Sequence record: PZ445437.1
Source of the DNA: a phage
Direction: 5' to 3' (one strand)
Length of the DNA stretch: 64,000 nt
In this document: piece after piece, positions 8,926-64,000 of the stretch
Position numbering within the stretch: the first letter of the stretch is position 1
Layout: each line of letters starts with the position of its first letter
Made by a program: the position numbers and the translations under genes
The notes under the pieces: generated by a model
Told to the model about the DNA's origin: nothing
Database searches by the model: none
Seen by the model: the letters and a program-made list of their open reading frames with translations, nothing else

Positions 8926-9428
8926 TTAAAAGTATTTTTTAAAACTCATCATAACTTTATCATCAACATCATTATCAATCTGTGCAACAAGGTAAGATGA
9001 CAGTTCTACTTCTTGTGGCGCGGATTGAACATTATCAGAATTAAGATATTCACGAATCCAAGGATATGGATGTTTAACCGGAGCATCGGTAATTGGGCAT
9101 GGAAGACCACACTGTTTCATACGAGATACAGTTAAGTAATCAATAAAGCTCCACATGCTATTTGTATTTAATCCAGGAACATCGCCATCTTTAAATAAAT
9201 GAACTGCCCAATCTTTTTCTTGGCGGTTAACTTCCATAAAAATATCAACTGCTTCTTGTTCACACTCTTTGGCAATTTTAACCCATTCATCGCCGTCAGT
9301 GCCAAGTTGAAGTTGACGAATAATATATTGGGTGCCTTTAAGGTGAAGCTGTTCATCACGTGCAATGAACTTCATAATCTTGGCATTACCTTCCATGATT
9401 TCCATGTTCTTATGGAAGTTAAAGGTAC
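8926..9428 (-). CDS. nrdB: ribonucleotide reductase small subunit, exon 2
   Basis: Frame encodes TFNFHKNMEIMEGNAKIMKFIARDEQLH (R2 iron-ligand region); no in-frame ATG upstream (track used TTG); joined to exon 1 by inferred splice. Confidence 0.8.
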
Positions 9429-9563
9429 CGTATGTTCGATTGAGCTCGCTAATTCTCAACCCGTTCTCTTATGAACTGCTGCATGTTACCATGCAGTCCA
9501 GACTATATCACAATCCCGGAGGGATTCTCCCCATTTCGAGTCGCTTGACCCTACGTCCGAAGA

Positions 9564-10373
9564 CTAGTCGTTGAACCTTGTTTTGCAATTGTCGCCGTGC
9601 CATCGTTTATATGTTGATGGTGATAAATCTTTCTTACCACAATATGGACAATTCAATTGAATTCTATTTGGATTTAATTTACATCTGTCATTATGTTTTA
9701 GATAAAATCCAGGACCTTTACCAATGTGACCACAGAAATCACATGTGATTTCTTTTTGTGCAGGATGGGTCCCGTTCTTAACCATTTCTAATGTTTTTGC
9801 TGATGTTCTTTTCTTATGGTCTTCTGATAAGAAATGATGTGAACCGTCATTTACCCGTTTTGATTGAGTTTCTGACTGCATTTTACCACCGCAAAATACA
9901 TGAGTACCTTCTTTTATAGCTGCAATATTGCGTTCTTTAACTTTTGCAATATGCTCAGCTTGTTGAAAATTATGTATACCTAATGCAACTCTATTTAAAT
10001 TAGATTTACGCTGTATTTCACCATCTAAAAGATGAAATGTACCATTTTCTATCTTAGATTTAATAGAGGCAATATTTTTAGCTCGTACTTCAGGGATATT
10101 AAAAATCTGGATTTCTCTAGATTTTGCGGCTTTAGAAGCTAATTCAGAAATTTCTTCAGGAGAATATTTCATTCTAAGCTTTATAGCATGACAAGCCTGG
10201 TAATCTTTTTGAGCTAAATGTATATCATAATGTTCCTGTATAGAAAGGCACATCAAATTATCTAAATCATTATTTTCACGGTTACCGTCTTTATGATGGA
10301 TTTCGTATGTTCTTCCATCAGAATCTTTAGGTATAGGTCCGTTAGCATCTATCCAAATTTTTCTATAGTTCAA
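9564..10373 (-). CDS. intron-encoded HNH homing endonuclease (I-TevIII-like), 269 aa, apparent TTG start
   Basis: EIHHKDGNRENNDLDNLMCLSIQEHYDIH HNH motif plus C-terminal CxxC...CxxC zinc finger; lies wholly inside the inferred intron. Confidence 0.85.
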   Translation of the reverse strand: MNYRKIWIDANGPIPKDSDGRTYEIHHKDGNRENNDLDNLMCLSIQEHYDIHLAQKDYQACHAIKLRMKYSPEEISELASKAAKSREIQIFNIPEVRAKNIASIKSKIENGTFHLLDGEIQRKSNLNRVALGIHNFQQAEHIAKVKERNIAAIKEGTHVFCGGKMQSETQSKRVNDGSHHFLSEDHKKRTSAKTLEMVKNGTHPAQKEITCDFCGHIGKGPGFYLKHNDRCKLNPNRIQLNCPYCGKKDLSPSTYKRWHGDNCKTRFND

Positions 10374-10400
10374 TTGTGCATCCTCTTAAAAGTATAATCA

Positions 10401-10408
10401 TATTTATA
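10401..10408 (-). promoter_or_regulatory. late promoter TATAAATA upstream of intron endonuclease
   Basis: Minus-sense TATAAATA about 28 nt upstream of the ORF start, followed by AAGAGGA. Confidence 0.4.
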
Positions 10409-10517
10409 TTATACTAATTAAAGGTGCAAGCAAAACCTTGGCTGCTAGTTTTCCATAAAGGACTTTCCAGCAATTAAAGGAGTTTTCGATAAACGTTACC
10501 GTTTAAAGGCGCATTTT

Positions 10518-11193
10518 ACGCAAAAGATACATAAAAACGAATAGCTTCCAATGCGTTGATTGCATGGAGGCAAAGGTAAAGAGATTTCATTAAAGCACGT
10601 TTAGCTTCGGCTTCTTGTTTAATAGCTCGGTTTAAACGAAAGACAGCATCAGGAGATTCTTTAGCTAGTTCTACAAATTCTTTAGCGTTTTCCCAATAAC
10701 GAGTTTTAATCAGAACATCATCATAATAACGTCCAATGGATTCAGCACGTTTCATAATAGCTTCATCTAATACAATTTCATCAAATACCTTCGATGGATC
10801 AGTATAAAGATTTCGCATGATATGTGTATATGAACGGCTGTGAATAGTTTCACTAAAAGTCCATGTAGCAACCCATGTATCAAGGCTTGGGTCTGAAATT
10901 AACGACATAAGTACAGCAGACGGCGCACGACCCTGAATGCTATCCAAAAGTGATTGATACTTCAGATTATTAGTAAAAATATTTTGCTGATACTGAGGAA
11001 GCTTATTAAACTGTGCAGCATCCATCATCAAGTTTACTTCTTCAGGACGCCAGAAAAATGATAATTGCTTTTCGGTTAAATCTTCAAAAACTTTATGGCG
11101 TTGAATATCATAACGCGCAATACCAAGACCTGAACCAAAAAACATAGGTTCTTTTAAAACATCAACTGGATTTGTATTAAAAACTGTGCTCAT
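10518..11193 (-). CDS. nrdB: ribonucleotide reductase small subunit, exon 1
   Basis: N-terminal R2 sequence ending ...LEAIRFYVSFA then stop that is the first intron nucleotide. Confidence 0.8.
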
Positions 11194-11244
11194 AAATTTT
11201 CCACTTAGTTAATAGATAGTGACTCGTCCATGAGTCAAATTATA

Positions 11245-13509
11245 TCATAATTTACAGGATGAACAATCTTCAGCTTTTGGAGTTTCTATTTCATAATCAT
11301 CAGTACCAGAACCATCACGGGTATTATGATAATAGAAATTTTTTCCGCCAAAATACCAAAAATACAAAAGGTCATCAATCATTATTGACATTGGAACCTT
11401 TCCTTTTGGAAAAATCTGTGGGTCATAATATGTATTCGCTGAAGCTGATTGACATACCCATTTCAGCATAATAGCTACCTGCGTAAGATAAGGTTTATTA
11501 CCTTTCTTAGCTAATTTCCATGTATAATCATAGAGGTCTATGTTATGCTCAATATTGGGCACGACTTGATTAAAGGAGCCCTCTTTTGATTCTTTAACAG
11601 AGACTGGTCCACGTGGAGGCTCGATACCGTTTGTACTGTTAGAAACTTGGGAAGATGACTCACATGGCATAAGTGCTGATAATGTGCTATTACGGATGCC
11701 AAAGAGCTTAAGGTCTTCCCGCAGCGACGACCAGTCACAAACGTATTTTGGAGCTGCGATTTGGTCAATCTTTTTATTGTACCAGTCGATAGGTAATTCG
11801 CCTCGAGACCAACGAGTGTCTGAATAATATTCGCAAGGTCCTTTTTCTTTGGCGAGCTTAATGGATGCTTTAATGAGTCCATACTGTAATCTCTCAAATA
11901 GTTCATGTGTTAAATCGTTAGCATCTTCATAAGAAGCAAAGTTACTTGCCAGCCAAGCTGCATAGTTAGTAACACCTACACCAAGGTTTCGACGCTTTTT
12001 AGCTTTTTCTGCTTCAGGAACTGGATATCCTTGGTAATCCAAAAGATTATCAAGAGCACGAACTTGAACTTCTGCTAATTCATTAATTTTATCTTGGTCT
12101 TGCCAATCGAAGTTATCCAGCACAAATGCAGAGAGAGTGCACAATCCAATTTCAGCATCAGGGCTATTCACATCATTTGTTGGAATAGCAATTTCACAGC
12201 ACAAGTTACTCTGACGAATAGGTGCCTTTTCACGAATAAACGGAGTATAGTTATTCGTATTATCAATGAACTGCACATAAATCCTTGCTGTTCCTGAGCG
12301 TTCAGTCATGAGCAATTCAAATAGTTCACGGGCTTTAATGCGCTTTTTACGAATATTAGGGTCTTTTTCTGCTGCTTCGTATAATTCACGGAAACGGTCT
12401 TGGTCTTTAAAATAAGAATAATAAAGCTCGCCACCCATTTCATGCGGACTGAACAAAGTAATGTAATCGTTCTTTCCGAATCGTTCCATCATCAAATCAT
12501 TCAGCTGAACACCATAATCCATATGACGAATGCGGTTTTCTTCTACGCCTTTGTTATTTTTCAAAACGAGAAGATTTTCAACTTCCAAATGCCAAATAGG
12601 ATAATAAGCAGTAGCAGCGCCGCCACGAATTCCACCCTGTGAGCATGATTTAACTGCAGTCTGAAAATGTTTCCAAAAAGGAATAACACCAGTATGACGT
12701 ACTTCACCCATGCCAATCTTAGAACCTTCGGCACGAATCATACCAACATTAATACCAATTCCAGCGCGTTTAGAGATATATTCAACAATTGAAGCGGAAG
12801 CCTTATTGATAGACTTCAATGAATCACCTGCCTCAATAACAACGCATGAACTAAACTGTCGAGTCGGAGTACGACAACCAGCCATAATAGGAGTTGGCAA
12901 TGAAATCTGTCGAGTAGATACTGCTTCATAAAAACGAATAACGTGTTTTAATCTATCAACAGGTTCATCTTGATGCAAGGCCATTCCAATAGTCATAAAT
13001 GCAAACTGTGGAGTTTCATAAATTTGACCAGTGGTTTTATCTTTAACTAGATATTTTTCTTTTAATTGCATCGCCCCGGAATAAGTAAATTCCATATCAC
13101 GCTCGTGCTTAATTTTTGATTCTAAAAATGTAATTTCTTCTGCTGAATATTTTGACAATAATTCAGGGTCATATTTACCTGCATTTACACAATAAGAAAT
13201 ATGGTCAATAAATGAACGCGGTTCATACTGCCCATAAACATGCTTACGAAGAGCAAACATTAAACAACGTGCAGCTACATATTGGTAATCAGGCTCTTCA
13301 ACCGAAATAGAATTCGCAGCGGCCTTAATGACAATAGTCTGAATATCATCAGTTGTCATTCCATCACGGAGATAAGATTTAATATTTTCATATAATTCAT
13401 AAGGATCTACTGATGTTCCTTCAGCTGCCCAAGATAAAACTTTAATAATTTTTTGTGGGTCAAAGCTCTGAGAAACACCACTACTTTTGATAACATTAAT
13501 TAATTGCAT
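11245..13509 (-). CDS. nrdA: ribonucleotide reductase large subunit (754 aa)
   Basis: Class I RNR alpha: ATP-cone N-terminus, NLCCEI active-site cysteine region; length equals T4 NrdA. Confidence 0.95.
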   Translation of the reverse strand: MQLINVIKSSGVSQSFDPQKIIKVLSWAAEGTSVDPYELYENIKSYLRDGMTTDDIQTIVIKAAANSISVEEPDYQYVAARCLMFALRKHVYGQYEPRSFIDHISYCVNAGKYDPELLSKYSAEEITFLESKIKHERDMEFTYSGAMQLKEKYLVKDKTTGQIYETPQFAFMTIGMALHQDEPVDRLKHVIRFYEAVSTRQISLPTPIMAGCRTPTRQFSSCVVIEAGDSLKSINKASASIVEYISKRAGIGINVGMIRAEGSKIGMGEVRHTGVIPFWKHFQTAVKSCSQGGIRGGAATAYYPIWHLEVENLLVLKNNKGVEENRIRHMDYGVQLNDLMMERFGKNDYITLFSPHEMGGELYYSYFKDQDRFRELYEAAEKDPNIRKKRIKARELFELLMTERSGTARIYVQFIDNTNNYTPFIREKAPIRQSNLCCEIAIPTNDVNSPDAEIGLCTLSAFVLDNFDWQDQDKINELAEVQVRALDNLLDYQGYPVPEAEKAKKRRNLGVGVTNYAAWLASNFASYEDANDLTHELFERLQYGLIKASIKLAKEKGPCEYYSDTRWSRGELPIDWYNKKIDQIAAPKYVCDWSSLREDLKLFGIRNSTLSALMPCESSSQVSNSTNGIEPPRGPVSVKESKEGSFNQVVPNIEHNIDLYDYTWKLAKKGNKPYLTQVAIMLKWVCQSASANTYYDPQIFPKGKVPMSIMIDDLLYFWYFGGKNFYYHNTRDGSGTDDYEIETPKAEDCSSCKL

Positions 13510-14063: not shown

Positions 14064-14924
14064 TTACACCGCCATTTTTCCTTTAATTGGCAGATGAGAT
14101 ACATAGTTGTTAAGAACAAAATTATGAGGCTTTGCAAATTGACTCAACCAAAATACCTGCGATTCTGTGTCCCATTCATCAAATTCATCTGGAAATTTTA
14201 ATTGTAATTCGCATAAATCCATAGGTTCACGACGTAAAATTTCTTTACATTGTTCTACGTGATTCATATAGATATGAGTATTACCACCAGAAAATATCAA
14301 ATCTCCAGGAATAAGATTACACATTTTAGCTACAATATGAACTAACGTAGCATATGATGCAATATTAAATGGAAGACCGAGGAAAACATCTACCGAACGT
14401 TGATACCACTGCAAATCTAAATAGCCATTACGCACATTAAACTGATAGAACATATGACAAGGCGGTAATGCCATATATTTAAGTTCAGCTGGATTCCACG
14501 CAGAAACAATTTGACGCCTATCATTTGGCAGTTTTTTAATACGATCAACAACTTCTATAATTTGGTCTACACCGCCAAAATCACGCCACTGTTTTCCATA
14601 AATTGGACCAAGTTCACCACTATGGTATCCTAAATCTTTTGCCTGATTTTCGTAATTTTCATCCCAAACTGTTTTGCCTTGGATTAACGAATCGTGTTGA
14701 ATTAATCGTAAATCATTGACATTTGTGCTTCCCGATAAAAACCATATTAGCTCAGCAATGCATGCATTCCAGGCGAGCTTCTTAGTTGTTACTGCAGGAA
14801 AACCTTTGGTTAAATCCCATCGTAATTTAGTACCGAACAAAGCAATTGTTCCTGTGCCCGTTCGGTCATCGGTTTCATAGCCATTTTCAAAAATGTCTTT
14901 AATTAAATCTTGGTATTGTTTCAT
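14064..14924 (-). CDS. td: thymidylate synthase, uninterrupted (286 aa)
   Basis: Continuous ORF with ThyA motifs (active-site PPCH, DLGPIYG); no intron. Confidence 0.92.
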
Positions 14925-16817: not shown

Positions 16818-17120
16818 TTATTTTTGAATTTTATCGAGCCACTTACCAAGCTTAATCATTTCTTTAGTAGCCTTTTCCATACTTCTGAACTTAACCAATA
16901 GAGGATAGGTATCGACACCCATAACTAAACTGGTTACAAGACTGTGTTCACCCACAAGCCATAACGAATACGTTTGAATATCGAGCCCGTAATTTCTGTC
17001 TTTGTGGACCCGTACACCCATCACTTCAAATTTCTCACTAGCTTTTTCTACCGCATTCAGGAAATCATCTTTAGTCATATTAGGCCTTAAAAGTTTTTCG
17101 CAAAAGTTCAATGATTTCAT
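16818..17120 (-). CDS. hypothetical protein (100 aa)
   Basis: ORF track. Confidence 0.55.
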   Translation of the reverse strand: MKSLNFCEKLLRPNMTKDDFLNAVEKASEKFEVMGVRVHKDRNYGLDIQTYSLWLVGEHSLVTSLVMGVDTYPLLVKFRSMEKATKEMIKLGKWLDKIQK

Positions 17121-17764: not shown

Positions 17765-17815
17765 CCGATAGTTGTATAGTACCATGGAAGGACAAGGATG
17801 TAAACCGTTTTGTGA
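17765..17815 (-). promoter_or_regulatory. T4-type early promoter
   Basis: Member of the repeated gtaaac...tatagtacca family; minus-sense GTTTAC then -10. Confidence 0.45.
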
Positions 17816-17830
17816 AAAAATTTTTGAAAT

Positions 17831-17856
17831 AAAAAAGGGGACCCTAGAGGTCCCCA
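17831..17856 (-). terminator. rho-independent terminator after gene 32
   Basis: GGGGACC-TCTA-GGGTCCCC hairpin followed by TTTTTT in minus sense. Confidence 0.7.
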
Positions 17857-17877
17857 ATTAATTAGTAATATAATCTA

Positions 17878-18783
17878 TTAAAGGTCATTCAAAAGGTCAT
17901 CTAGGTCCGTGTCATCAGCACTAGATGAACTGCCAGAGCTTGAGCTCATAAAATCATCTTCAGTTTTTGTATTGAAGTCATCAACATTGAATGCATCCAA
18001 ATCATCAGCAACTTTATCAGCTTTCTTAGCAGCAGTTGCAGCGGCACCGCCCATCACAGCAGTTCCCATGACTTGACCGAATTTAGTGCTCAGTTCTTCA
18101 AACGATTTGAATTTATCTTTAGAAGTCATTTCAGAAAGGTCAACCATTTGTTCGAACAGTTCTTTCTGGAAAGATTCATCGTCAATGTTTGGAATCGCAG
18201 ATTGATTTAGGAATTTAGATTCATCGTAGTTACTAAATCCAGAAACCTGTTTAACTTTCAGTACAAAGTTAGCACCTTCCCACGGACAAGTTACATCAAC
18301 TGGAGTTTCACCCATTTCAACATCAACCGCAATCATCGCGTTGATTTTATCCCAGATTTTCTTACCGAAACGATATTTAAATACTTTACCTTCATTTTCT
18401 GGAGCAGCTGGGTCTTTTACAACAAGAATATTAGCCCAGTAAGAAGTTTTACGTTTAACAAGACTGTACTCTTTATTGTCAGTGTTGTACAGATCATTTT
18501 TACTGATGTACTGACATACTGGGCAAGAATCGTAATCACCGTGGGTAGATGAACATGTTTCAATATACCATTTACCATTTTTCTTGAAACCGTGATTTAC
18601 AAGAATTGCGAATGGTGCTTGTTCATCATTTTTAGACGGAAGAAAACGAATTACTGCTTGACCGTTACCCGCATTATCGAGTTTCAGTTTCCACTCGCCT
18701 TTATCTTCAGAAGAAAAACCTTTATTGCCATTCAGTTTAGCCATTTGTGCAGCAAGTTCAGCAGTAGATTTACGTTTAAACAT
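17878..18783 (-). CDS. 32: single-stranded DNA-binding protein gp32 (301 aa)
   Basis: Protein [23 protein letters not shown]... with zinc-site cysteines and acidic C-terminal tail; recognised as T4 gp32. Confidence 0.95.
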
Positions 18784-18845
18784 TTTATTTCCTTTTTAAT
18801 TTAATTTAATTTAATTAACAGTTGGTGCTATGACACTTTACCTCA
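18784..18845 (-). promoter_or_regulatory. gene 32 autogenous translational operator
   Basis: Minus-sense ...GTGTCATAGCACCAACTG TTAATTAAATTAAATTAAATTAAAAAGGAAATAAA ATG: structured element plus UUAAA repeats before the start. Confidence 0.6.
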
Positions 18846-19475
18846 TAGCTGGCATAATTCGCAATACTCTGGGTCTTCGAGAGGTATCCAACCTGAGTTG
18901 AAATACTTTACCATCGATTTAGCAGTTGTATCAGTTATATTTATATTACCTTTAACTCTTCGCCATCCAGGAGTTTTACCGTACAGATTAGAGGATAATA
19001 ATAACACATAATTCTCGTAAGCAATATGAGATAATTTCCAAGACTCTATATTAGCTCGTGATGTTTTCCAAGGTCTAAAATCGTCACGGTTCATATAATT
19101 AGCCAATCTCATATGCTCTCTAACTTCCGGGTCTTTGGCTGGATGAGTTTCACCACTCACACCAAATCCACCACCAGCATATACCAGATTAAAATAGTCT
19201 GGATTATCTCTGGCATTTACTTCAAGTTGGTATTTTCGTTCTGCTTCAATAACATCCAAGTCATCATCAATTTGAATTATTTTAACGCTCGGTTTTTGAA
19301 GCATTAGCGCATTCAAAAATCTTTTTTGTTTACATGAGCTCCAGTATTCCTTTCCGGAAGAGTCATATATTATTCCGTTCTCAAATGAGCAATTTAATTT
19401 ACTACCGATATAGTAGTATGGCGGAGTCTTATTTTTGACACGGTCTTCAAATGTAAACCAATATACTATATTCAT
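18843..19475 (-). CDS. segG: free-standing GIY-YIG homing endonuclease (SegG-like), 210 aa
   Basis: N-terminal IVYWFTF...(11 aa)...YYYIGSK GIY-YIG motif; sits between 32 and 59. Confidence 0.65.
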   Translation of the reverse strand: MNIVYWFTFEDRVKNKTPPYYYIGSKLNCSFENGIIYDSSGKEYWSSCKQKRFLNALMLQKPSVKIIQIDDDLDVIEAERKYQLEVNARDNPDYFNLVYAGGGFGVSGETHPAKDPEVREHMRLANYMNRDDFRPWKTSRANIESWKLSHIAYENYVLLLSSNLYGKTPGWRRVKGNINITDTTAKSMVKYFNSGWIPLEDPEYCELCQL

Positions 19476-19476
19476 A

Positions 19477-20130
19477 TCAATACTTGCAAGATTTCACAGT
19501 TTCAATGAAAACATTTTTAGCTTTCTGTGAATCAATATTTAAAATTTTTCTATAAGCCTTTAACTTTATAGAATAATTATTCCAGACTAAATTATCAGTC
19601 TGTTCATCATGTTTATCAATTATATTTAAAAATGAATCAAGCAAGATAAACGTCTCAAACGAAATTATGTTCGACTGAAGCAGTTTAAAAATATAACTTG
19701 ATTGAACTTTTGGATTATATTCAAAGATTTCTTTAAAAGCAGAAACTTCAACTTTTTTACTAAAATAATAAATGTTGCGAATATCTTCTTCAAACTTAAA
19801 TTTAATTTGCTTTAAGCGTCCGATATATTCACGATAAAACACAAGTGCATCAGCGTCAGAGATGTCACCAATCCAAGCATCTTGGTTAGCAACCAAATTG
19901 CTTATAAAGATTAAAGCAAGTTCCTTTAATTTATATTTTTCTGATAACTTCTGGAAAAAATACTTATCCCTTCGCTTTTGATAAGCAGCATCAGACACCC
20001 GCATGCACCAATTATACTTAATAACATCATACTTTCCATTCATATGCTGTTTTATCATTAAGTATAATTTATAAACTGATTTACCATCAATGTATCTTTC
20101 ACCACCAGCAGGCATGCGGAGTTTAATCAT
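19477..20130 (-). CDS. 59: helicase loader gp59 (217 aa)
   Basis: Length and N-terminal sequence as T4 gp59; position between 32 and 33. Confidence 0.85.
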   Translation of the reverse strand: MIKLRMPAGGERYIDGKSVYKLYLMIKQHMNGKYDVIKYNWCMRVSDAAYQKRRDKYFFQKLSEKYKLKELALIFISNLVANQDAWIGDISDADALVFYREYIGRLKQIKFKFEEDIRNIYYFSKKVEVSAFKEIFEYNPKVQSSYIFKLLQSNIISFETFILLDSFLNIIDKHDEQTDNLVWNNYSIKLKAYRKILNIDSQKAKNVFIETVKSCKY

Positions 20131-20465
20131 AGCAGAAAATCTAATGTATTAGTTTTTTCACAACGAACAACAGAAGGACGTAAAAGATTTTCGTCAATAG
20201 CTTCTGACTGAATTTTTTCAATTATACCCGAAGGAATAAATTTAGCAAATTGAGTTTCAGGAATAGAGTTTTCTTCTAAGAATGCTGTCGTAGCTTCAAG
20301 ATAACTCATTCCAAACTCTTCTACCATTTTTTCAATAATAAATCCATTTTCTTGACGATCAAGAAGCTTTGCTATTTCATCCTTTTCTTTCTTGATTGAA
20401 AGTTCTTTTTCTGAAAGACCGGTCTCATCGACCGGGCGAATATCATTTAGAGAAAACTGTGTCAT
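20127..20465 (-). CDS. 33: late transcription co-activator gp33 (112 aa)
   Basis: Acidic small protein in conserved position; start placed at MTQFSLNDI. Confidence 0.75.
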   Translation of the reverse strand: MTQFSLNDIRPVDETGLSEKELSIKKEKDEIAKLLDRQENGFIIEKMVEEFGMSYLEATTAFLEENSIPETQFAKFIPSGIIEKIQSEAIDENLLRPSVVRCEKTNTLDFLL

Positions 20466-43862: not shown

Positions 43863-45683
43863 CTACTGGCTCATCCATTCTTTACGAAGGTCAGCATTAT
43901 CTCCCATGAGCATTTCAAAAAGCTCTTTCCAGTTCTCAGGAAGTTTAACAACATCATATACTGGGTTTTGAATCATCTCACGATATTCAGATTTTTCCAA
44001 AGAGCCAAGTCCCTTAATATAACGGATGCTATGTTTAGGTAGAGCATCTTTGGCACTCTCATATTCAGCGACTGTATAAAACCATTCTTGTTTTTTACCG
44101 ACCTGAGCGATGATTACAGGAGTTTTGACAAAGCGAATTCGTCCTTGCTCAAACAATTCTGGCCAATTACTAAAAAACCCGAGCAGAGAAGGATAAATGC
44201 TTCCTAGACCATCATGGTCAGCATCAGTCATAATAGCAATATTATGATAATTCAAGTTTTCAGCTTTTTCACCAAGAACTAATCCAGTGATTGCGCAAAT
44301 ATCAAATAGTTCTTTATTTTTAAGCATATCAGCATATGACATACCCCAACTGTTGAGAACTTTACCACGCAATGGATAACCACCATGAAGTTCTTTATCA
44401 CGAACATCAATAAGATATCCGATAGCAGAATCACCCTCAGTCAAGAAAAGAGTAGTATCAGCATCTTTACCGCAAAGATTCGCTTTGATATGTTTATGAA
44501 CCTTAGCTTTAGAAGCCTTTTTAGCTGCTTTAGTTTCTGCTGCTTTTTCTGCCGCCAATTTACGAGCCAAAGCAGCTTCAATAATCGGCATTAGAATTGC
44601 TTCATTATTTAGAATAGCACGTGAAATCTTTTTAGCATCAAGTTGAATATGACTACGGATTTCACCAAATGGAGAAGTCAAACGCTCTTTAGTTTGAGAA
44701 TCAAATCGCATGTTTTTCATATCACGGACAAACATAACGATAGTCAAACATTCTTTGACACGTGCTTTAGTTACATCAATTTTGAACTTACGTTTGATTT
44801 GTGGAATAAGGTCTTCACAAATATCATCCATAACACAGTCAATGTGATGGCCACCATTCTTAGTATGAATGTTATTGACGTATGTTAATTGACGAAAACC
44901 ATCTGGTGAACGACCAACCGCAATAGAACAATTTTCTTGTTCTTGAACGATAGCATGTTCATCATACTGTCGTGCGTATTTCTTAAAATTACCCTGAACC
45001 TTTTTACCATTAAAGGTAAATTGAATATCAGGATAAACAACAGCAAGTGTCTGGAGACGATCCAGTGTAATGTCAAGATAAACTTGGGACAGCTCATTAG
45101 TTTCAAATGACATAAAATCTGGAATGAAAGTAACACGAGTTCCTTTCCATTTTCCAGGAATAGTTTCCCAGGATTTATTTTCCATGCCATTTGAACAACG
45201 AACTACAATATTATTTTGACCATCGCCAGTTTCACCGACAAACATCACAGAAAAAATGTTAGTTAAACTAGAACCAACACCATTCATACCACCGGTGACA
45301 CGTTCTTTATCATCACCAAAGTTACCACCCGCTTTTGGAATAGTCCAAGCAGCAACTGGACCAGGAATTTCTTCACCGGTAGGTGTTTTAACCATCGCTT
45401 GTGGAATACCACGACCGTTATCTTCAACTGTTACTTGATTGTTTTTGATAGTAACATTAATTTTATTTGCGAATTTAAACTTAGTACGAATACCTTCATC
45501 TACTGAGTTATCGATAATTTCATCAATAAGCTTAACAAGACCAGGTACATACTGAACACTTTCCCATTTACCAAACAGAAAGCGCTCATGCATTTCATTA
45601 GCAGAAGAGCCAATATACATGCCGCTACGCTTTTTGATATGTTCAATATCGCTCAGAATTTTAATTTCATTCTTAATCATCAC
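43863..45683 (-). CDS. 39: DNA topoisomerase II large (ATPase) subunit, unsplit gene 39 (606 aa)
   Basis: GyrB-like GHKL ATPase plus TOPRIM region in one continuous ORF; equals T4 gp39 plus gp60 fused. Confidence 0.92.
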   Translation of the reverse strand: MMIKNEIKILSDIEHIKKRSGMYIGSSANEMHERFLFGKWESVQYVPGLVKLIDEIIDNSVDEGIRTKFKFANKINVTIKNNQVTVEDNGRGIPQAMVKTPTGEEIPGPVAAWTIPKAGGNFGDDKERVTGGMNGVGSSLTNIFSVMFVGETGDGQNNIVVRCSNGMENKSWETIPGKWKGTRVTFIPDFMSFETNELSQVYLDITLDRLQTLAVVYPDIQFTFNGKKVQGNFKKYARQYDEHAIVQEQENCSIAVGRSPDGFRQLTYVNNIHTKNGGHHIDCVMDDICEDLIPQIKRKFKIDVTKARVKECLTIVMFVRDMKNMRFDSQTKERLTSPFGEIRSHIQLDAKKISRAILNNEAILMPIIEAALARKLAAEKAAETKAAKKASKAKVHKHIKANLCGKDADTTLFLTEGDSAIGYLIDVRDKELHGGYPLRGKVLNSWGMSYADMLKNKELFDICAITGLVLGEKAENLNYHNIAIMTDADHDGLGSIYPSLLGFFSNWPELFEQGRIRFVKTPVIIAQVGKKQEWFYTVAEYESAKDALPKHSIRYIKGLGSLEKSEYREMIQNPVYDVVKLPENWKELFEMLMGDNADLRKEWMSQ

Positions 45684-52224: not shown

Positions 52225-52971
52225 TTATCCTCGGATAAGTTTAAAAATTGAACAATTTAGCGGATATCCTCTTTTCAGTTTAAGTTTATCAATAAAAGAC
52301 AAGTTTTGATACCGCTCTACACCTTGAATAATTTTATCACACATATCATATTGCATTTCTGCTTCTGACAACTTTTTCACAGTTTTCCAATCCGAGCCTT
52401 TAAGAAGAACGTTCAATTTAACAACTTCAGCGCCTTCAGCTATGCGAGAACCATCAATACGAGCTTTAAGTGCTATAATCCTCAGCTTAATGTCAGAGGT
52501 CTGTTTTGATTTAGAAAGCTGAGAAATGTGTTCAATTCGGTTTTCACGTTTTTTCTGTATAGCTTTAATTTGATTATAAGTCTTTTTTATTTTAGCCCAT
52601 TTCTTTTCATCTAAATTTAGTTTATGAACTTTTTTCGCAGATGAACGACCAATTCGCAAAGCAAATAAATCACGCTTTTCAATCAACTCTTCTAAAGTAT
52701 AATCAGAACGAAATGTATTATACTTTTTCTTTACTGCAATAACATTCCCTTTAATGTATCCAACGTTATTATCAAAACGTTCTAATGATAATTTCTCTCC
52801 TTCAACACGATTATCAAAAGGTTCTCCTGAGTAAGCACAAACTTTCTGATCTAAAATGTTCTTAATGTAATTGAAGTCTAAGTTAAAATCTTTAGAACGT
52901 CTTTTTGCAGATGCCTGGGTATGCTCTAGACGACGTTTAATTTTACGAATTTGGTTATTAGACAGCTTCAT
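52225..52971 (-). CDS. srd: Srd-like protein (248 aa)
   Basis: Length and position between dda and modA as in T4; basic protein. Confidence 0.65.
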   Translation of the reverse strand: MKLSNNQIRKIKRRLEHTQASAKRRSKDFNLDFNYIKNILDQKVCAYSGEPFDNRVEGEKLSLERFDNNVGYIKGNVIAVKKKYNTFRSDYTLEELIEKRDLFALRIGRSSAKKVHKLNLDEKKWAKIKKTYNQIKAIQKKRENRIEHISQLSKSKQTSDIKLRIIALKARIDGSRIAEGAEVVKLNVLLKGSDWKTVKKLSEAEMQYDMCDKIIQGVERYQNLSFIDKLKLKRGYPLNCSIFKLIRG

Positions 52972-61802: not shown

Positions 61803-62165
61803 TTAAAAGAATTTAAACTTTTTCTTTGATCTTTTATTAAATGCATCTTGTAGTTGCATTGTAATACATTTTTCTACATGAGGAGCTAACTCAGCTTTTC
61901 TTTCTTGGTCAAGAACAGCAAAGTCCATTACAACCTTTCCATCAACCCAATCCAGTTTAGTTACATACACTATATGCGTAGAACCATCTTCTAGTTTAAT
62001 GACAATCTCCTGGATAACATTTTCCATAGCAGATTTAATTATCTTAAGAGACTCATTAAAAAGACGTTCTTTTCTTTCTTCTTCCCCCTCCGAAGAGGGG
62101 GATTCATCGATAATTTCTAGATCTAAATCTAAATCATCTTTATTCATTAAATTCTTCCATATCAC
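61803..62165 (-). CDS. 40: gp40-position acidic protein (120 aa)
   Basis: Position between 41 and uvsX. Confidence 0.55.
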   Translation of the reverse strand: MIWKNLMNKDDLDLDLEIIDESPSSEGEEERKERLFNESLKIIKSAMENVIQEIVIKLEDGSTHIVYVTKLDWVDGKVVMDFAVLDQERKAELAPHVEKCITMQLQDAFNKRSKKKFKFF

Positions 62166-63321
62166 TTAACTGTTCGAGGTCAGTTTCTAAATCAGCAGCT
62201 GATTTACTTTTACTTTCTGGAGATTTAAATTTTTCAACCTTTGAGTTAATCAATTCATCAACTTCAGCTTCAACAATTTCATTACTATCAATAGCACCTA
62301 ACTGATAAGCACGTTTAATAGCATCTCGGAATGGTTGATGCTTAAATAAAGGACCCCAGAATGTAGTGCAGTTGGTATCTTTTGCACGCCAAGATTTTTC
62401 TTCGCGAATCATCTCACCGGTTTCTTCATCAAGAAATTCACGGGCATACCAGCCATTTTTAGGTTTTACTACAAATCCTAATTCTAGAGCCATATCTAAC
62501 AATCCAGAATAAGGATCGATACCACCGTCAAATTTAACATCAATAAAGAATTTACTTTTTTCTTTAACGGTACGAGATTTTTCTACATTTAGAACAAATT
62601 GATACCCCTGAAGATCAGAACCATCTTTAATCTGGCGTTTACCGATAATGAATACAGTATCAGCCGAATACATTACGCCTGTACCACCTGTCATCACGGT
62701 TTTACTAAACATTTCAATTGTTTCAATTGTATGGTTAACCGCAACACATGGAATATTTTTAATGCTAAAATAAGGAGTAACAATACGGAATAATGACTTC
62801 AGTGATTTAGCACGAGTCATATCTGCCACAGATTTTTCATTCAAGGCGTCTTCCGTTTCTTTCTTAGAAGCCATATTACCAATTGAGTCGATGAATACAA
62901 TAACCTTTTCACCGCGCTCAATAGCTTCAAGCTGGTTCACCATATCAATTTTCAGCTGTTCAACTGACTGAATTGGCGTATGAATTACTCGTTCTGGGTC
63001 AACTCCCATGGATCGTAAATAAGCTGGAGTAATACCAAATTCACTATCATAGAATAGACAAACCGCGTCAGGATATTTGTTCAAATATGCCGCAACCATA
63101 GTCAAAGACATATTTGATTTAAAGTGTTTAGAAGGCCCTGCGAAAATAGTTAAACCAGACTGCATGCCGCCATCAATCGCACCAGAAATAGCAATATTAA
63201 GCATTGGGATTTTTGTACGGATTACATCCTTTTCATTAAAGAATTTAGATGTAGTCAGTTCAGCAGTCATTTTAGAAGTGGAAGCTTTAATCAAACGGGA
63301 TTTTAAATCTGCAATAGACAT
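62140..63321 (-). CDS. uvsX: UvsX RecA-like recombinase (393 aa)
   Basis: Walker A GPSKHFKS; sequence recognised as T4 UvsX. Confidence 0.95.
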   Translation of the reverse strand: MSIADLKSRLIKASTSKMTAELTTSKFFNEKDVIRTKIPMLNIAISGAIDGGMQSGLTIFAGPSKHFKSNMSLTMVAAYLNKYPDAVCLFYDSEFGITPAYLRSMGVDPERVIHTPIQSVEQLKIDMVNQLEAIERGEKVIVFIDSIGNMASKKETEDALNEKSVADMTRAKSLKSLFRIVTPYFSIKNIPCVAVNHTIETIEMFSKTVMTGGTGVMYSADTVFIIGKRQIKDGSDLQGYQFVLNVEKSRTVKEKSKFFIDVKFDGGIDPYSGLLDMALELGFVVKPKNGWYAREFLDEETGEMIREEKSWRAKDTNCTTFWGPLFKHQPFRDAIKRAYQLGAIDSNEIVEAEVDELINSKVEKFKSPESKSKSAADLETDLEQLSDMEEFNE

Positions 63322-63398: not shown

Positions 63399-64000
63399 TT
63401 AATCAACTGCTATTGGATGAATAGCATTAAACTTATGAAATGCTTCTGATTTTTCTTTGCGCGAAACACACATGCGAAGAACCTTTAATGGCTCGTCTTC
63501 TTCACCCAACGATTTTCGTTTTTCAATATTAGAAGTTTTCCAACGAGCTTGCTCTGGAAACTCTATATTGATTTGCTCAAGCGCTCTATTATGTTTAGAA
63601 TTACTGCGAATTGAACTGCACCCGCCAGGAGCTTGTGCTTTTCCAGATACAACTAGATATTTGAACAAGGCCAAATGCGGATAACCTTGATTAATTAAAT
63701 TGAGAAATGCATACATATCTTCGCATAAATCAATTTTTCCATACCCAATTTGTTCTGTAGTAAGTTTTCCAAGGTCATACCATGTATTCGTGAATCCATA
63801 TGAATTTTCACGATAATTACCCCAAGATGAAGTAATTTTAAAAATAGGTAGACGAGCATGGCCATGATAATACCCACAATCCATGGCATCCTCAACATAT
63901 TGAATCAATTCATAGAACTGTTCACGAGTCAATTGATTGACTTTATCTACGCAACGACGATCATCTCTTTTTCGCATTGAACTCATACGAATAGTAGTAT
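63399..64000 (-). CDS. hypothetical protein, probably partial (frame open to right edge)
   Basis: ORF track 63399..63986, but no in-frame stop between 63986 and 64000; does not resemble T4 beta-glucosyltransferase as I recall it. Confidence 0.5.
   Translation of the reverse strand, partial: TTIRMSSMRKRDDRRCVDKVNQLTREQFYELIQYVEDAMDCGYYHGHARLPIFKITSSWGNYRENSYGFTNTWYDLGKLTTEQIGYGKIDLCEDMYAFLNLINQGYPHLALFKYLVVSGKAQAPGGCSSIRSNSKHNRALEQINIEFPEQARWKTSNIEKRKSLGEEDEPLKVLRMCVSRKEKSEAFHKFNAIHPIAVD

Follow-up and report, generated by a model that had tools for sequence, protein, structure and literature searches.

The open reading frame between genes 59 and 32 of the T4-like phage (Tequatrovirus) DNA analysed here, a stretch of 64,000 nucleotides from record PZ445437.1 (hereafter the window), is almost certainly segG, the free-standing GIY-YIG homing endonuclease gene of T4-type phages. 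Specifically, i) the product is identical at 210/210 residues to T4 SegG (QPI17468, from MT984581) by BLASTP, and tblastn finds 100% identity to the segG of T4T and RB55; ii) the gene order on the - strand is 33-59-segG-32-frd.3, as in T4, with one base between the gene 59 stop and the segG ATG, and 59 nt between the segG stop and the gene 32 ATG; iii) the T4 record annotates the corresponding CDS as segG, "GIY-YIG family; site-specific DNA endonuclease"; and iv) PHROG 7504 "homing endonuclease" matches the product over its full length (E 1e-133).

Identity and setting of the gene

The initial annotation had reported a 210-residue frame at this place, likened its position to that of T4 segG, and called it a Seg-type homing endonuclease. 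The frame is there, on the - strand with an ATG start, its N-terminus reads MNIVYWFTFEDRVKNKTPPYYYIGSK as quoted, and it is segG itself, with a product 100% identical to a published free-standing GIY-YIG enzyme; coordinates are collected in Table 1. The phage resembles T4 in the SegG protein, its 59/32 position, the overlap with the gene 32 operator pseudoknot, and an internal late-promoter consensus; the differences from T4 are confined to silent or flanking DNA (~98.4% nucleotide identity over 2.4 kb), the gene 32 leader of the phage having an additional UUAAA unit and lacking one A ahead of the ATG. A megablast search with 17800..20200 matched 725 phage records, the best at 98.9% and T4 at 98.4%. 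For the first 25 kb of the window the best match in any record is ~97%, and the phage is therefore a distinct mosaic T4 relative that carries the same segG. No second SegG-like copy was found in the 64-kb window.

Table 1. Features of the 59-segG-32 region, with coordinates in the window
Feature	Position	Strand	Detail or basis
gene 59	19477..20130	-	ORF list
segG coding sequence	18843..19475	-	210 codons + TGA stop; ORF list
gene 32, single-stranded DNA-binding protein	17878..18783	-	ORF + T4 counterpart annotation
N-terminal GIY-YIG-type nuclease domain, residues 1-102	19170..19475	-	conserved Y5, Y22/G24, Y44/S47, E79, N96
flexible interdomain linker, residues 103-108	19152..19169	-	sole segment with pLDDT <50
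C-terminal helical domain, residues 109-210	18846..19151	-	confidently predicted structure
candidate MotA-type middle promoter in 3' part of gene 59	19619..19643	-	TGCTTGA-N12-TATAAT; pattern scan
candidate MotA-type middle promoter in segG	19279..19303	-	TGCTTCA-N12-TAAAAT; consensus match only
late-promoter consensus TATAAATA inside segG	18938..18945	-	155-162 nt upstream of gene 32 ATG
GAAUUAUGCC, counterpart of T4 RNase E site upstream of gene 32	18851..18860	-	identical to T4; last segG codons
gene 32 operator pseudoknot, T4 type	18827..18854	-	stem 1 UGCC/GGUA, stem 2 GCUAUGA/UCAUAGC
unstructured operator part, UUAAA/UAAA repeats + Shine-Dalgarno	18784..18826	-	sequence; role from PMC535899
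cluster of T4/T2 differences in gene 32 (+207, +222, +227, +228, +231)	18553..18577	-	~300 bp from insertion point

Much of the biology of this element was already known: segG, its gene 32 target, T2/T4 marker exclusion, and the operator overlap were all published between 2003 and 2010. For gene 32 cleavage, homing, marker exclusion, the embedded promoters, and RNase E processing we rely on publications about the identical protein; the present analysis contributes the finding that the product equals T4 SegG, its fold, the patchy occurrence of the gene, the footprint of replacement, the linkage with the pseudoknot variant and the gene 32 5' region, and the decayed copies. In the compilation of PMC2988022 (Table 1 there) segG is listed as free-standing, GIY-YIG, of demonstrated activity, inserted between 32 and 59, and with gene 32 as its target. 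According to PMC2988022, transcription of the gene, formerly named 32.1, is driven by a promoter within the 3' part of the gene upstream; segG in turn contains the middle and late promoters for gene 32; and RNase E processes the segG-32 transcript. Given the protein identity with T4 SegG, we infer that SegG of the PZ445437.1 phage would likewise be an active nuclease.

Elsewhere in the window, nrdB (8926-11193, - strand) consists of two exon-like ORFs, at 10516-11193 and 8926-9459, each with a match to Ribonuc_red_sm. Between them is a 269-residue HNH ORF (9564-10373). PHROG 12324 "intron-like DNA endonuclease" matches the whole of this ORF (E 2e-192), and a short T4-type relic family matches the last 97 residues; the ORF looks like a full-length I-TevIII of the RB3 type and unlike the truncated form in T4. 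The gap between nrdA (11245-13509) and the first nrdB exon is ~50 nt (11193-11245), and so nrdA.1, nrdA.2, and mobE of T4 appear to be absent. An uninterrupted 286-codon ORF (14064-14924, - strand) occupies the td position beside frd and, by position and length, is probably thymidylate synthase; td is interrupted in the T4 record, where I-TevI is annotated alongside, and thus the phage seems to lack both the td intron and I-TevI. The large topoisomerase subunit is a single 606-residue ORF (43863-45683, - strand) with HATPase_c, DNA_gyraseB, and TOPRIM_C, whereas in T4 it is divided between genes 39 and 60, which flank mobA. The ORF at 63399-63986 (- strand), immediately upstream of uvsX (62140-63321), matches positions 94-269 of the PHROG 842 profile, "beta-glucosyl-HMC-alpha-glucosyltransferase" (E 2.5e-49), which we take to be a T2/T6-type glucosylation gene; no segA-like GIY-YIG gene was seen in the uvsX neighbourhood. 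A 100-residue ORF (16818-17120, - strand) between the frd.1-like and frd.2-like genes, where the T4 record has a 139-nt gap, matches PHROG 4423 (unknown function) over its full length and has no Pfam match. Finally, the N-terminal ~100-160 residues of a Srd-like protein (52225-52971, - strand; PHROG 1400, E 4e-108) have secondary matches among endonuclease, HNH, and endonuclease VII PHROGs.

A divergent nuclease domain

Generic sequence profiles fail to recognise SegG. A Pfam search with the protein returned no family at E<=10, PF01541 included; an NCBIfam search returned no match; and PDB gave no relevant match either to the single sequence or to a 29-sequence profile, while a 105-sequence profile recovered only the DNA-binding domain of I-TevI, by way of the NUMOD3 tails of the relatives. 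Nor did hhalign of the family profile against I-TevI, alone or with its close homologues, find a nuclease-domain match. The proposal that a profile search would reveal a GIY-YIG domain thus failed for generic profiles and was supported by a fold search and by a profile alignment with T4 SegE. The former used an alignment of 28 SegG homologues from which a structure was predicted, with a mean pLDDT of 90.7 and two domains (residues 1-~100 and ~110-210): the first has the GIY-YIG core of a motif beta-hairpin, a third strand, and flanking helices, and Foldseek ranks the I-TevI catalytic domain first, but with a non-significant E of 0.83. In the latter, hhalign of the N-domain profile with T4 SegE gave Prob 70% and E 4e-5 over 83 columns, a modest link.

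The SegE alignment sets IVY(3-5) against FVY, YIG(22-24) against YIG, Y44-W-S-S against Y-L-G-S, E79 against E67, and N96 against N83. E79 and N96 would thereby supply the metal-binding Glu and the structural Asn of the fold (E75 and N90 in I-TevI). A 12-column I-TevI match had hinted instead that GKEYWSS (41-47) might be the "YIG" strand; because the SegE alignment puts IVY and YIG in their canonical places, with Y-x-G-S separate and downstream, we rejected that register. Between IVY and YIG there are sixteen residues (6-21), and the GIY-(11)-YIG spacing of the initial annotation was therefore wrong.

A profile search of 1.84 billion representatives yielded 460 clusters at E<=1e-3. Six residues, Y5, Y22, G24, Y44, S47, and N96, do not vary among 105 relatives, and E79 is almost invariant. 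NUMOD3, a type of DNA-binding motif characteristic of homing endonucleases, is present in 76 of 104 relatives; 4 of the 104 match PF19835 (SegE_GIY-YIG; best E 3.3e-4), and none match PF01541. No invariant Arg that could be a counterpart of I-TevI R27 was found among the 105: R52 starts helix 51-59 in SegG, the same column holds I, D, L, or Q in relatives, and T4 SegE has no Arg in the stretch aligned to SegG.

By profile comparison the nearest characterised nuclease domain is that of T4 SegE (PF19835), and membership of SegG in a SegE-like branch of the GIY-YIG fold is supported. Both proteins are free-standing and both have their target in a neighbouring gene. SegG differs from SegE in having 6 more residues and a short helix between GIY and YIG (16 residues, compared with 10 in SegE and I-TevI), and a 9-residue beta-hairpin insertion at residues 35-43; SegE has another C-terminal domain, insertion site, and target (the uvsW region, as opposed to gene 32). 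I-TevI (PDB 1LN0/1MK0) is more remote: it is intron-encoded, cuts close to its own insertion site, has a conserved R27 and 10 residues from GIY to YVG, binds DNA through a zinc finger, a NUMOD3 helix, and an HTH, and has no sequence-level match to SegG. We tentatively raise the possibility, in which our confidence is low, that the SegG-type domain stands for a large unmodelled GIY-YIG branch (at least 460 clusters at 50% identity) in which the Arg is not conserved and Y-x-(G/S)-S (Y44, S47) partly substitutes for it; the members are mostly proteins of 270-450 residues with NUMOD3 tails, and the Y44/S47 motif is common to SegE.

The C-terminal domain is probably the one that recognises and binds target DNA; its residues ~109-210 cross-match other homing-endonuclease PHROG families. 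The view that the protein has no other recognisable domain stands as far as Pfam is concerned, but not for the structure, where a helical domain is confidently predicted at ~109-210.

Replacement of the gene 32 leader

A comparison of the 32-59 spacer with that of segG- relatives, as the initial annotation had proposed, reveals an insertion footprint. In T2 and RB27 the spacer is 99 nt long and reads TAA-TTGCTTATTATAAATAGATTATAATTATCTCACTGA-CCAGCTATGAGGTCATACATCGTCATAGCACC..., with the UUAAA repeats and the ATG coming next; the spacer contains a MotA-box-like TGCTTA, the late-promoter TATAAATA, and TATAAT. Homology between the T2-type spacer and both the window and T4 ends just after the gene 59 stop and resumes at CCAGCTATGAGG, which is the last two segG codons plus the stop. 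Rather than simply being inserted, segG therefore took the place of ~36 nt of T2-type spacer, including the MotA box, TATAAATA, and TATAAT. Spacer length is bimodal across 23 Tequatrovirus loci, with one mode at 99 nt (HY03 has 113) and the other at 680-693 nt. The T4-type pseudoknot (UGCC...GGUA, loop AAGUG) occurs in all 11 segG+ loci and the T2-type (UGACC...GGUCA, loop UACAUCG) in all 12 segG- loci, the two types differing by coordinated changes in both arms of stem 1. The segG insertion brought its own pseudoknot variant.

As had been claimed, the 3' end of segG overlaps the gene 32 translational operator: the codons TGC CAG CTA TGA (18854..18843) provide the 5' arm of stem 1 and the whole 5' arm of stem 2, so that the end of the gene is the 5' half of the pseudoknot, as it is in T4 (PMC535899). 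The MFE fold recovers stem 2, and Rfam returned no family at E<=1 over the pseudoknot region. Borjac-Natour et al., who described the overlap of the 5' part of the pseudoknot with the segG frame, suggested that segG is a chimera that extended into a pre-existing pseudoknot (PMC535899). The unstructured part of the operator varies in its number of UUAAA units (2 in the T2 type, 3 in T4, 4 in the window and ES12, 4-5 in HY03), and this number could tune gp32 autoregulation; close relatives also differ by one base in the length of the A run preceding the gene 32 ATG. Within the RNase E site counterpart the cut presumably falls between GA and AUUAUG, the T4 "-71" site.

Promoter-like signals are likewise partitioned by the presence of segG. 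The TATAAATA at 18938..18945 is one of only 6 matches in 64 kb; segG+ genomes have exactly one such match upstream of gene 32, at -152..-162 (11/11), while in segG- genomes the sole TATAAATA is in the short spacer at -91, or -105 in HY03 (12/12). A pattern scan finds TGCTTCA-N12-TAAAAT in 11/11 segG+ loci, and the published statement that segG harbours a gene 32 middle promoter (PMC2988022) makes this element a candidate for it. The TGCTTGA-N12-TATAAT in the 3' part of gene 59 is present in 21/23 loci, the pattern being unmatched in RB27 and AugustSocin, and could be a promoter driving segG and gene 32.

Distribution, homing, and retention

The gene is variably present among close relatives, as the initial annotation held, and not found in all of them: by tblastn 140 records encode a protein with >=95% identity to SegG, and at the DNA level 140 of the 725 matching records span the insertion, ~28% of the ~498 records at >=95% identity. 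It is absent from T2, RB27, RB51, AR1, and others. Of 31 diverse T4-like loci, 3 have a SegG-family gene at 59/32, one of them a 58%-identical paralogue; more distant N-domain paralogues occupy other intergenic sites, beside gene 49 and beside rpbA. Two segG copies are frameshifted, in AugustSocin (~codon 22) and in IMGVR_UViG_3300045988_128797 (~codon 54), and both keep the internal TATAAATA and the T4-type pseudoknot. The segG of AREG1 has a one-codon deletion in the C-terminal domain.

Between segG+ and segG- groups, nucleotides 1-150 of gene 32 are differentiated (dxy 0.025 versus pi ~0.010) and nucleotides 151-300 partly so, with nothing beyond ~+300; this 5' differentiation, a population-level signal from 23 loci, is consistent with co-conversion tracts whose starting point is a few hundred bp into gene 32. 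There are also recombinants: in HY01 and AugustSocin segG accompanies a T2-type gene 32 5' end, and the segG- phage ESh25 has one of the T4 type. No gene 32 nucleotide is fully diagnostic of segG presence in the 23 loci, and therefore neither the target nor the basis of self-immunity is located by sequence. One weak lead to a possible SegG recognition region is the cluster of T4/T2 differences from +207 to +231, within which CA at +227/228 is found in 11/11 segG+ loci, and AT or AC in 9/12 segG- loci (Fisher p 3e-4, relatedness ignored). The primary SegG paper is that of Liu, Belle, Shub, Belfort & Edgell (2003, J Mol Biol 334:13); the cleavage site lies, we assume, ~330 bp from the insertion point, and no published distance was found in a literature search not covering that primary paper.

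The cleavage sites of free-standing endonucleases lie hundreds of bp away from the genes that encode them, and inheritance therefore needs resection that reaches the endonuclease gene (PMC2988022); cleavage by SegA and by intron-encoded GIY-YIG enzymes leaves 2-nt 3' overhangs (PMC2988022). Upon co-infection with a segG-less relative, SegG would cut the gene 32 of that relative a few hundred bp from the 59/32 junction; the break would be resected and then repaired from the segG-carrying genome; and repair would copy the 5' region of the donor gene 32, together with segG whenever resection reached the junction. The outcome would be both homing of segG and local exclusion of the gene 32 markers of the other phage. 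Such exclusion, which the initial annotation had also ascribed to the element, is published for T4 SegG, the identical protein: the SegB paper (PMC2330249) names SegG as the cause of T2L gene 32 exclusion when T4 is crossed with T2L. T4 SegF exemplifies the same process, intronless homing from a site in a neighbouring essential gene with local exclusion of T2 markers, at another locus (56/soc) and with another target (gene 56); the likeness is one of process, not of sequence. Because the insertion replaced a spacer that held gene 32 promoters, segG now carries a late and probably a middle promoter for that gene, as well as the RNase E site and half of the operator pseudoknot, and these embedded signals would make clean loss of the element costly.

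Were segG a domesticated element, maintained chiefly because its DNA regulates gene 32 and encoding an incidental or dispensable endonuclease, one could point to the sole TATAAATA upstream of gene 32 in segG+ genomes, which lies inside segG and persists in the two frameshifted copies, to the constant linkage of the T4-type pseudoknot with the insertion, and to the argument that embedded promoters favour retention (PMC2988022). We nonetheless consider this quite unlikely: the frame is intact and the protein 97.6-100% identical in ~140 records, which would be unexpected if only ~200 nt of regulatory DNA mattered; published crosses demonstrate endonuclease-dependent high-frequency inheritance and marker exclusion (PMC2988022, PMC2330249); and segG-less phages express gene 32 with a spacer of 99 nt.

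It is slightly less improbable, though still unlikely, that SegG is not purely a selfish passenger but chiefly a competition weapon by which its phage breaks gene 32 of a co-infecting relative, a gene essential for replication and recombination, and the attribution of T2 gene 32 marker exclusion in T4 x T2 crosses to SegG (PMC2330249) would accord with such a role. Gene conversion repairs the break, however (PMC2988022), so that the competitor genome is converted and not destroyed, and carriage by ~28% of close records together with decayed copies fits a selfish cycle of gain and decay better than a fixed advantage. That the ORF is an inactive relic, or that GIY...YIG is a chance resemblance without nuclease function, we regard as extremely improbable: despite the lack of any Pfam, NCBIfam, or PDB sequence match, the unusual 16-residue spacing, and the lack of a conserved arginine, site-specific cleavage has been published for the identical T4 sequence. 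For segG as a homing endonuclease gene, the sporadic and frameshifted copies fit a cycle of invasion and decay in which the embedded signals hinder clean loss.

In current genome collections, then, about one Tequatrovirus genome in four has segG; the gene is always accompanied by its own pseudoknot variant, and some copies are frameshifted relics. The case illustrates that a divergent homing endonuclease can be recognised from sequence alone where Pfam and NCBIfam fail. The sole point that is even mildly new is the existence of a large SegG/SegE-like clade that current generic profile libraries do not see; pipelines that use generic GIY-YIG models would miss the entire clade.
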